Virus record (IMG/VR): IMGVR_UViG_2724679293_000007
Coordinates: 32,001-96,000 of that record
Length of the DNA: 64,000 nt
Source of the DNA: a virus
Taxonomy: Duplodnaviria; Heunggongvirae; Uroviricota; Caudoviricetes
Strand: one strand, 5' to 3'
Each line of letters starts with the position of its first letter. Position 1 is the stretch's first letter. The notes under the pieces were generated by a model. That model was not told where the DNA came from. It worked only from the letters and a program-made list of their open reading frames with translations, and did no database searches. Below, piece after piece: positions 58,152 to 59,468 of the stretch. The position numbers and the translations under genes are program-made.

Positions 58152-58340
58152 GTGGTAGTGCACTTTAACATCGGGAGAATAATCGTGTCATCCAAGGTTA
58201 ATTATGAGTCGCTGGCATCGGTCATGCCGCGTAATAAACAGGAAACAGATGCTGTAGTGGACCCTGTAATCGCTGAAATGAATGCTCGCCTGGAGGCTGA
58301 ATTTGCAGCTGAGAATGAACATACCACCCAGGGCGACTAG
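58152..58340 (+). CDS. Possible small protein (62 aa)
   Basis: ORF only. Confidence 0.3.
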   Translation: MVVHFNIGRIIVSSKVNYESLASVMPRNKQETDAVVDPVIAEMNARLEAEFAAENEHTTQGD

Positions 58341-58944
58341 GACTGTTTTTTGTGTCGGTAGCGGTCCGTCACTCACTCGTGAGGACTGTGCTGCTATAGA
58401 AAAAACTGGCTGTTCAATCATCGCGGTTAACAATTCCTGGCAGATGTTCGATGACATTTATGCCTTATACGCCGGTGATTTGTCATGGTGGAAGCAATAC
58501 GGTTCCACCATACCGGGAGGGAGGTTCCGCAAAGTGACAGCCAACCTGGCGGCGGCGAAATCATTTTCGTTGGAGTACAGGCGATATTGTGGACCGGCGG
58601 AAGGGGTAAATAGCGGCGCGCAGGCTATCAGTCTGGCGGCTGAATCAGGGGCTGAAGTAGTGGTATTAGTCGGCTATGACTGTTCTCTGCAAAACGGCCT
58701 TCATTGGCATGGTGCGCACCCTCAAGCTCTACGGAATCCAACGCAGGTGTCTATTTCAAAATGGCAACAGCAGTTCCTGGATACCCGCAAAAAACACGCA
58801 GATTTACATATTTTGAATGCAAGTAGGAGCAGTGCAATTCAATGTTTCCCAAGAATAAATTTAGAGGCAGTGATCGCGTTATTATCGTCGGCAGTGGCCC
58901 AAGCGCCGCAAACTTTGTTGCGCCGCGCGGAGTGCCGATTATAG
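58315..58944 (+). CDS. Hypothetical Rossmann-like protein, paralogue A
   Basis: VGSGPS...IAVN...LVGYD motifs shared with the next gene. Confidence 0.45.
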   Translation: MNIPPRATRTVFCVGSGPSLTREDCAAIEKTGCSIIAVNNSWQMFDDIYALYAGDLSWWKQYGSTIPGGRFRKVTANLAAAKSFSLEYRRYCGPAEGVNSGAQAISLAAESGAEVVVLVGYDCSLQNGLHWHGAHPQALRNPTQVSISKWQQQFLDTRKKHADLHILNASRSSAIQCFPRINLEAVIALLSSAVAQAPQTLLRRAECRL

Positions 58945-59468
58945 CGGTCAATGGGGCCATCGACTGGCTTAACCGCGCTTCTTATTTTTTCACCCTTGAT
59001 CCATCGCCAGACAATATGCGGCGCGTTGGTCGTGGCCGCCGTCGCCGTGGTGTTTGTTATTGCATGGCGCTACCCGATGTTAAAGAACGTGAGGTCAGAG
59101 ACGGCGTTTTGTGCTTCCGTCGTGTGGCTGAGCGCGGCACGGAGCCAAAAAATACGAATTCTCCCGAGTGGTGGGCGTGGCGCTGGTCCGCACATTTCGG
59201 CCTTTGCGAAGATGAGAATGAAATTGCCAGCGGCAATAGTGCATATGGTGCTCTGAACCTGGCTTTCCATATCGGATTCAAACATGTAGCCCTGGTGGGC
59301 GTTGACGCTACGCAAGAACCACGCGTTCATTCCGGCGGCACGCCAAAAAATCTAAGTCACCTGCCTTTGTTATTCCAGTCTGCGCGTGAACAGATTGACG
59401 TTGTTTCATGCGGGAAAATGGGAGGTATTCCGCAGATGACTCTTAAAGAATGGCTGAAGAATACATGA
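58842..59468 (+). CDS. Hypothetical Rossmann-like protein, paralogue B (208 aa)
   Basis: IVGSGPS...IAVN...LVGVD; overlaps paralogue A by about 100 bp in another frame. Confidence 0.45.

Follow-up and report, generated by a model that had tools for sequence, protein, structure and literature searches.

The Maf flagellin glycosyltransferases (DUF115/PF01973, PDB 5MU5), the GT42 sialyltransferases Cst-I and Cst-II from Campylobacter jejuni (PDB 2P56), and the archaeal 6-hydroxymethyl-7,8-dihydropterin pyrophosphokinase MptE (PDB 8SD5), together with the thiamine pyrophosphokinases, are the described enzymes that most resemble PmgO and PmgP, the products of two overlapping genes in a P1-like phage. 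We compared the phage proteins with each of these groups. Maf enzymes are 16-19% identical to PmgO and PmgP. They are about 630 residues long and carry extra domains at both the N- and C-terminus, whereas PmgO and PmgP are about 200 residues long and comprise the catalytic core only. The P1 genes also lack a flagellin context, and their products fall below the Pfam threshold for the family. Identity to the GT42 sialyltransferases is 13-17%.

At the level of gene sets, the nearest described systems come from mycobacteriophages. Work by Freeman and colleagues from 2023 reportedly found that glycosyltransferases and O-methyltransferases of these phages decorate capsid and tail proteins. The genes form phage-encoded sets in which several glycosyltransferases are combined with methyltransferases, as predicted enzymes of these kinds are in the cassettes of P1 relatives described here. 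The two systems differ in their enzyme families and in their hosts, which are Gram-negative in our case. A term for the mycobacteriophage virion glycosylation cassettes is used in PMC11256854.

The pmgO-pmgP locus

The window analyzed here is a stretch of 64,000 nucleotides from a P1-like phage. Its region 57500-60900 aligns with phage P1 at 97.4% identity and without gaps, and is comparably near to about 20 P1-like phages. The features of the locus are as follows, in window coordinates.

58086..58112, + strand: predicted sigma-70 promoter PpmgN (-35 at 58086-58091, -10 at 58107-58112), transferred from the P1 annotation
58125..58141, - strand: C1 repressor operator Oppp, transferred from the P1 annotation; 16 of 17 bases as in P1
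58185..58340, + strand: pmgN, small ORF (51 aa) that runs at its 3' end into the beginning of pmgO (P1 annotation; match to phrog_2350, E 3e-37)
58282..58944, + strand, frame 1: pmgO, predicted MptE-like/DUF115-fold protein of 220 aa from the ATG at 58282 (P1 annotation)
58825..58829, + strand: Shine-Dalgarno-like AGGAG, 12 nt upstream of the pmgP ATG (sequence)
58842..59468, + strand, frame 0: pmgP, second predicted MptE-like/DUF115-fold protein, 208 aa, a distant paralogue of PmgO
59450..60142, + strand: ppp, lambda-type Ser/Thr phosphatase (metallophosphoesterase; Pfam Metallophos, E 8e-16; P1 annotation)
60139..60840, + strand: pmgQ, predicted GT8-like (glycogenin-like) glycosyltransferase (match to phrog_1962 'glycosyltransferase', E 1e-126)

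The genes form an operon-like chain, pmgN-pmgO-pmgP-ppp-pmgQ, in which successive members overlap by 59 or 26 nt (for the two candidate pmgO starts), 103 nt, 19 nt, and 4 nt (ATGA). In the P1 annotation, the chain sits behind a C1-controlled promoter (Oppp, PpmgN), and the late promoter LPpmgL lies further upstream, before pmgL. The -35 element of PpmgN is unchanged from P1, and the -10 element is one base off (CATGCT here, TATGCT in P1). An alternative internal ATG at 58315, which the initial annotation took as the start of pmgO, would give a protein of 209 aa.

The initial annotation reported that pmgO and pmgP overlap by about 100 bp in different frames. We measured the overlap at 103 nt (58842-58944), with the two genes in different frames on the + strand. 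The P1 entries AF234172 and NC_005856 in GenBank already annotate both coding sequences with an identical overlap. The overlapping stretch is 100% identical to that of P1, as is the PmgO protein, and PmgP differs at two residues. The same two coding sequences are present at the homologous locus in P1, and 84 P1-like loci carry them without an indel.

Paralogy and fold of PmgO and PmgP

The two proteins had been described as related on the strength of a common VGSGPS...IAVN...LVGxD pattern. Both contain these motifs. In PmgO, numbered from 58315, they are VGSGPS at 14-19, IAVN at 36-39, and LVGYD at 118-122; in PmgP they are VGSGPS at 16-21, IAVN at 34-37, and LVGVD at 151-155. Direct comparison by BLASTP aligned 36 residues in the N-terminal GSGPS...IAVN part only (E 0.004). 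Because this alignment was confined to the N-terminal motif, profiles were needed to compare the proteins. We built profiles from 40 homologues per family, and hhalign aligned them over 158 columns, nearly the full length, with a probability of 97.2% and an E value of 3.2e-11 at about 24% identity. Each protein also matched the PHROG family of the other (E 6e-4 and 2e-5). The pairwise alignment thus bears out the reported relationship, by BLASTP at the N-terminal motif and by profiles across the proteins. Each family is also widespread on its own, among phages and prophages from Gamma-, Beta-, and Alphaproteobacteria and from Bacteroidota and Gemmatimonadota.

We searched for the family to which the proteins belong. 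Profile searches with either family against PDB sequences gave no match, so a fold search was needed. AlphaFold2 models of PmgO and PmgP had pLDDT values of 91.4 and 94.3, and both models had the same best structural neighbors: Maf glycosyltransferase, MptE pyrophosphokinase, and Cst sialyltransferase. The solved PF01973 members Maf (5MU5) and MptE (8SD5) have this fold in common with the models. In the BFVD viral library, the only matches were to uncharacterized or 'MptE-like' phage proteins. As judged from the models, PmgO and PmgP have the MptE-like/DUF115 fold, as found in Maf, the GT42 sialyltransferases, and MptE and the thiamine pyrophosphokinases.

Sequence searches agreed with this placement at the margin of detection. 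PmgO and PmgP scored 23.1 and 20.9 bits against Pfam PF01973, both below the gathering cut-off of 34.6 bits and matching the last ~35 profile positions only. Some homologues in both families have precomputed PF01973 matches, and the PmgO-like protein of locus L020 scored 28.4 bits. An N-terminal GxGPS loop, a mid-protein (N/T)S(G/A), and a GxD motif show little or no variation within either family, and the profile alignment matches them up between the two; they may correspond to the motifs of the PF01973 MptE-like/DUF115 family. The cross-matches between PHROG families, the common sub-threshold Pfam match, the profile alignment, and the AlphaFold2 models together indicate that PmgO and PmgP are paralogues. 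With only about 24% identity between the copies at the profile level, the duplication is evidently old. We conclude from the profiles and models that the proteins are ancient, anciently diverged paralogues that did not arise by a recent duplication, and that they are uncharacterized members of a known fold family.

More specific assignments were also considered. An NCBIfam search returned nothing significant for PmgO or PmgP; the WaaZ-type Kdo III transferase model TIGR04437 gave an E value of 0.11, with a score of 11.8 bits where the cut-off is 200. We followed this lead with hhalign against WaaZ of E. coli K-12, and the similarity stayed non-significant (probability 11-12%), confined to an SA..A..LG..I..G.D motif. 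The identification as WaaZ was rejected. Databases use the name 'alpha-2,3-sialyltransferase', which derives from this same distant resemblance to the fold family. E. coli K-12 is not known to make CMP-Neu5Ac, and the donor that the name implies is therefore probably wrong.

Constraint on the overlap and its origin

We asked what each part of the overlap encodes. The overlap divides into two parts at the start of the conserved PmgP core.

58842..58880, + strand, 39 nt: overlap part 1; conserved 13-aa C-terminus in the pmgO frame, variable 13-aa leader in the pmgP frame
58881..58944, + strand, 64 nt: overlap part 2; beta1 strand and glycine-rich loop (20 aa) in the pmgP frame

In the pmgO frame, part 2 encodes a non-conserved tail of 21 aa and the TAG stop codon. 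The core of the PmgO family ends at ...CFPxxxLExxL, beyond which the tails of homologues vary from 0 to about 60 aa and are unconserved. In the PmgP family, an N-terminal leader of about 13 residues is variable (pLDDT 58), and the beta1 strand and Gly-rich loop that come next are invariant.

Polymorphism among close relatives followed the same division. The set comprised 84 independent, near-identical P1-like loci from our first scan of viral contigs. Over pmgO and pmgP, these loci contained no gap and represented 55 haplotypes, all with both frames open, with 127 variable sites. Outside the overlap, changes were mostly synonymous in the resident frame. Within it there were four variable sites, all between 58898 and 58937, and three of these four were synonymous in pmgP and non-synonymous in pmgO. 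Part 1 (58842-58880) showed no polymorphism among the 84 loci.

The first scan had returned only near-identical P1-like loci, so we rescanned with a divergent query to obtain greater diversity. Eleven enterobacterial relatives were anchored on the glycine-rich motif of PmgP, and the same nucleotides were translated both ways. The pmgO frame was conserved 5' of the motif. From the motif onward the pmgP frame was conserved, with many columns at 100%, and the pmgO frame was not. These results show that the 103-nt overlap is tolerated through complementary constraint, because each half is bound in one frame only. The PmgO tail encoded by the last 64 nt of the overlap appears from these comparisons to be dispensable.

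The pmgO stop codon occupies different positions in different relatives. In the eleven enterobacterial loci, it lies 1, 10, 28, 31, 55, 64, or 70 nt past the start of the PmgP motif. Among 22 non-redundant, divergent pairs in which pmgO is directly followed by pmgP, 18 have the O stop downstream of the codon that opens the P glycine-rich motif, so that an overlap is unavoidable in these pairs whatever start is chosen. Estimated overlaps ranged from 4 to 133 nt. Of the 22 pairs with a recognizable PmgP motif, 16 had an SD-like sequence ahead of the inferred PmgP start. Long overlaps recur in relatives at 40-80% identity.

The frame relation between the genes resembles that of coupled gene pairs with an ATGA junction. 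In such pairs the downstream gene is in the -1 frame relative to the upstream gene, and pmgP was almost always in this frame relative to pmgO among the 22 pairs. Distant relatives (L019, L026, L013, and L126) have overlaps of 4-13 nt. At 40-133 nt in the enterobacterial lineage, the pmgO/pmgP overlap is exceptionally long for such a coupled pair, and it extends over sequence that encodes conserved parts of both proteins. Since pmgP stands in the frame relation found at ATGA junctions, the long overlap most likely arose from a coupled junction of this type. We propose that the coupled 4-nt ATGA junction was the ancestral state. The start of pmgP would then have been extended upstream, and the pmgO stop would have drifted through sequence whose product in the pmgO frame is irrelevant. 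This history can be set against the suggestion in the initial annotation of a tandem duplication with a shifted junction. The paralogy agrees with that suggestion, but the duplication is not recent, given the ~24% identity, and the junction is shifted only in the limited sense that the pmgO stop has moved into the 5' region of pmgP.

The overlap has a practical consequence for annotation. Automatic gene callers avoid this overlap, and as a result PmgP homologues are truncated and lose the nucleotide-binding motif. In Citrobacter rodentium, for example, entry P0231 (176 aa) has a called start after the SGPS motif, although an ATG of its ORF lies 94 nt inside the upstream gene.

We considered whether the ribosome might join the two reading frames. 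A programmed -1 frameshift in the overlap would yield a PmgO-PmgP fusion, in addition to the separate proteins or in their place. The pmgP frame is -1 relative to pmgO and is open from 58827, and the pmgO frame contains two slippery-type heptamers.

58845-58851, + strand: T_TTC_CCA, -1 slippery-type heptamer in the pmgO frame (sequence)
58857-58863, + strand: A_AAT_TTA, -1 slippery-type heptamer in the pmgO frame (sequence)

These are the only X_XXY_YYZ heptamers in pmgO, and both lie within the junction. Some relatives also have heptamers at the junction (T_TTA_AAC in L005, C_CCA_AAG in L017). Their sequence and position vary across relatives, however: they differ or are missing in L005, L006, L013, L017, and L111, and are absent altogether in L006 and L111. 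The TTTCCC within the first heptamer is imposed by F-P coding in both frames. Downstream RNA folded with an MFE of -39.3 kcal/mol (z -1.23), and 23 of 200 shuffled sequences folded as well or better. Slippage at either heptamer would remove the conserved C-terminal segment of PmgO. Furthermore, pmgP has its own conserved ATG and SD, no fused homologue of ~400 aa occurred among the top 120 matches of either family, and relatives show the gene orders O-Q-P and P-Q-O or carry the two genes on opposite strands at a distance of 4 kb. We judge the heptamers at 58845-58863 to be incidental. The frameshift that had been suggested, whether programmed or mis-annotated, is highly improbable in view of the pmgP start signals, the unconserved heptamers, the lack of significant structure in the downstream RNA, and the variable gene order.

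We give almost no credence to the idea that the overlap is an artefact, whether through sequencing error or through mis-annotation of a single gene, or that the pair is a recent tandem duplicate. Some PmgO database entries are indeed frameshifted or truncated (P0002, P0012-P0016, and P0026). Against an artefact, the 84 P1-like loci are collinear without a gap, their 55 haplotypes keep both frames open, and the long overlaps recur in the more diverged relatives. A sequencing error, raised earlier as a possible cause, is excluded by these independent loci, which have no indel over either gene. Recent tandem duplication was rejected on the short BLASTP alignment (36 residues, E 0.004) and the 24% profile identity. 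Together, the gene structure and the paralogy indicate that pmgO and pmgP are very probably two separate, functional, translationally coupled P1 genes and not one frameshifted gene.

The three-enzyme cassette and its proposed role

We examined the genes that accompany pmgO and pmgP. Of 88 diverse loci, 58 contained all three of the PmgO-, PmgP-, and PmgQ-like genes, whose order varied. The match of PmgQ to Pfam GT8 was sub-threshold. A profile of the PmgQ family aligned over about 150 residues with the Skp1 alpha-galactosyltransferase 6mw5 (E 3e-7) and with glycogenin (E 2e-5), and residues D79 and D81 (the DxD motif) and the C-terminal H208 are invariant. By these sequence criteria, PmgQ is a predicted GT8-like glycosyltransferase and the conserved third member of the cassette.

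Other genes are inserted in the cassettes of relatives. The 64 cassette-internal ORFs included 13 class-I SAM methyltransferases and nine FkbM methyltransferases, as well as extra GT8-like proteins and weakly matching KpsC/S-like or DUF6716 putative glycosyltransferases. The 'Capsule_synth' (KpsC/S) matches were short and at or below threshold, and we discarded them as evidence for Kdo. Metallophos domains occurred in four of the 64 ORFs. A ppp gene was present only in the P1-like relative L005 among genome loci L005-L026. Thus pmgO-pmgP-pmgQ, often accompanied by methyltransferases, is a widespread phage cassette.

The company of these genes bears on the chemistry of PmgO and PmgP. One or both could be pyrophosphokinases of the MptE/thiamine-pyrophosphokinase type, which would use ATP to activate a small molecule or a hydroxyl and would not transfer sugars. 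The genes lack a folate or thiamine pathway context and have predicted glycosyltransferases and methyltransferases as their partners. We regard pyrophosphokinase activity as quite unlikely. Glycosyltransferase chemistry is the probable activity of PmgO and PmgP.

The cassette is most often found among genes for head assembly. In 59 non-redundant loci, the two nearest upstream ORFs were mostly major capsid (9), portal (5), prohead protease (11), and terminase genes, and the two nearest downstream ORFs were mostly head completion (7), gp6-like connector (6), tail completion (5), HK97 gp10-like (5), and tail tube (5) genes. A Zhongshania prophage (L013), for instance, has the order TerL, portal, protease, capsid, O, P, methyltransferase, Q, connector, head completion, tail. 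Other positions also occur. The cassette lies between lysis and terminase genes, a classic moron position, in L107 and L111, and beside ribonucleotide reductase genes in L020. In P1 it is outside the head operon, adjoining tail and baseplate genes behind the C1-controlled promoter. All named hosts are Gram-negative.

The searchable literature contained no functional, biochemical, or proteomic study of pmgO, pmgP, pmgQ, hdmB-D, or phage DUF115. In a CRISPRi screen, pmgO, pmgP, ppp, and pmgQ were non-essential for plaque formation (PMC10695390). We favor, with somewhat better than even confidence, an overall explanation in which pmgO and pmgP are coupled genes within a late-expressed, glycan-building cassette. 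PmgO and PmgP would act in succession as two Maf/GT42-like enzymes, each using a ulosonic acid in its CMP-activated form. The only donor of this kind that we know to be generally available in Gram-negative hosts is CMP-Kdo, which we propose as the candidate donor. Maf enzymes are reported to be able to transfer Kdo from CMP-Kdo in E. coli (PMC11339370, bioRxiv 10.1101/2020.06.03.131540). PmgQ, as a GT8-like hexosyltransferase, would add a hexose, and in relatives the sugar-type methyltransferases would methylate the glycan. Expressed late, the cassette would build a short, sometimes methylated glycan.

The acceptor is the least certain part of this scheme. The usual site of the cassette, between the major capsid and head-completion genes, leads us to suggest tentatively that the glycan is attached to a virion protein of the head, as a non-essential decoration. 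We know of no report of a glycosylated P1 virion protein. Alternatively, the same enzymes could modify the host envelope, adding Kdo or a hexose to the LPS core at the cytoplasmic face. Late masking of the P1 receptor, the LPS core glucose, would then reduce superinfection or the loss of progeny on debris. LPS outer-core transferases are also members of the GT8 family, the alignment of the PmgQ profile with WaaJ is weak, and weak matches to the Kdo III transferase WaaZ were noted above; neither the WaaJ nor the WaaZ similarity is significant, however. The restriction to Gram-negative hosts, the moron-type position in L107 and L111, and the non-essential nature of the P1 genes (PMC10695390) would also suit an envelope acceptor. 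On the other hand, the commonest position of the cassette is inside the head operon, which is unusual for host-conversion genes, and the C1 operator Oppp should keep the P1 genes off in lysogens, where conversion matters most. We consider modification of the envelope unlikely. In its fullest form, our proposal is that the O-P-Q(-methyltransferase) cassette represents a widespread and so far unrecognized virion glycosylation system of tailed phages of Gram-negative bacteria, with the head as the likeliest target and host CMP-Kdo and UDP-hexose as donors; we offer it as a possible but doubtful generalization.

The overlapping pair is in itself ordinary. It is part of the P1 GenBank annotation and is accounted for by translational coupling and a drifting stop codon. 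It does provide a clear case of two conserved genes that share about 100 nt with each stretch bound in one frame, and it misleads gene callers into shortening PmgP homologues. The part most worth experiment is the conserved three-enzyme cassette, which is found across several bacterial phyla, and its frequent position within phage head operons. If the cassette does glycosylate virions, there would be consequences for the stability of phages, for their recognition by the immune system during therapy, and for P1 in its role as a tool. It would then be a Gram-negative counterpart of mycobacteriophage virion glycosylation, and P1 would carry a glycan decoration that nobody has looked for.

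Overlapping genes from pmgN to pmgQ

In the 58185-60840 segment, every neighbouring pair of genes in the series pmgN-pmgO-pmgP-ppp-pmgQ overlaps. The lengths of these overlaps are as follows.

Overlaps between neighbouring genes
pmgN/pmgO: 59 nt, or 26 nt with the pmgO start at 58315
pmgO/pmgP: 103 nt
pmgP/ppp: 19 nt
ppp/pmgQ: 4 nt

The true start of pmgO is ambiguous between ATG 58282 and ATG 58315. Close relatives begin with 'ML...', which resembles the 58282 start, and neither candidate ATG has a good Shine-Dalgarno site.

We compared the upstream regulatory region (58107-58141) to that of P1. 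The predicted -10 element of the PpmgN promoter reads CATGCT rather than the TATGCT of P1, and the C1 repressor operator Oppp carries one substitution. PmgM (57540-58118) contains a VRR-NUC nuclease domain that scores slightly below threshold (Pfam E 3e-4), and in four relatives a VRR-NUC gene is likewise one of the closest genes upstream of the cassette.

pmgN (58185-58340) was called essential in a CRISPRi screen of P1 genes (PMC10695390), with an efficiency of plating of about 1e-2, whereas earlier work found pmgN itself to be non-essential. Because the genes downstream of pmgN were all non-essential in the same screen (PMC10695390), polarity on pmgO-pmgQ cannot explain the pmgN result.

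PmgO and PmgP gene calls

A PmgP homologue is encoded in a Citrobacter rodentium prophage.

L111 7911-8531: PmgP homologue (protein P0231)

The public call for P0231 is 176 aa long and starts 3' of the conserved SGPS motif, apparently so as not to overlap the preceding gene by 94 nt. This late start looks like a systematic annotation error across the PmgP family.

In several database sequences of PmgO that come from P1-like plasmids of E. coli (P0002, P0012-P0016 and P0026), the reading frame changes part-way, as in ...SLQTAFIGM... and ...RKKTRRFTYFECK; one cluster of these entries has 48 member sequences. Either a number of natural P1-like plasmids carry pmgO as a pseudogene, or the frame changes are assembly indels.

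Rearranged and single-copy loci

In prophages of Pseudescherichia and other Enterobacteriaceae (L007-L011, about 1970-5590), pmgP and a PmgO-like gene are on different strands and separated by ~4 kb. Between them is a gene for an inverse autotransporter (intimin/invasin-like) of ~1170 aa that matches Big_1, IAT_beta and Invasin_D3. Elsewhere (some Alphaproteobacteria loci, L022-L025), a lone O/P-like gene matches both the O and P profiles, and L026 has two O-like copies that overlap by 4 nt. The lone genes and the L026 pair may represent intermediate states of the duplication.
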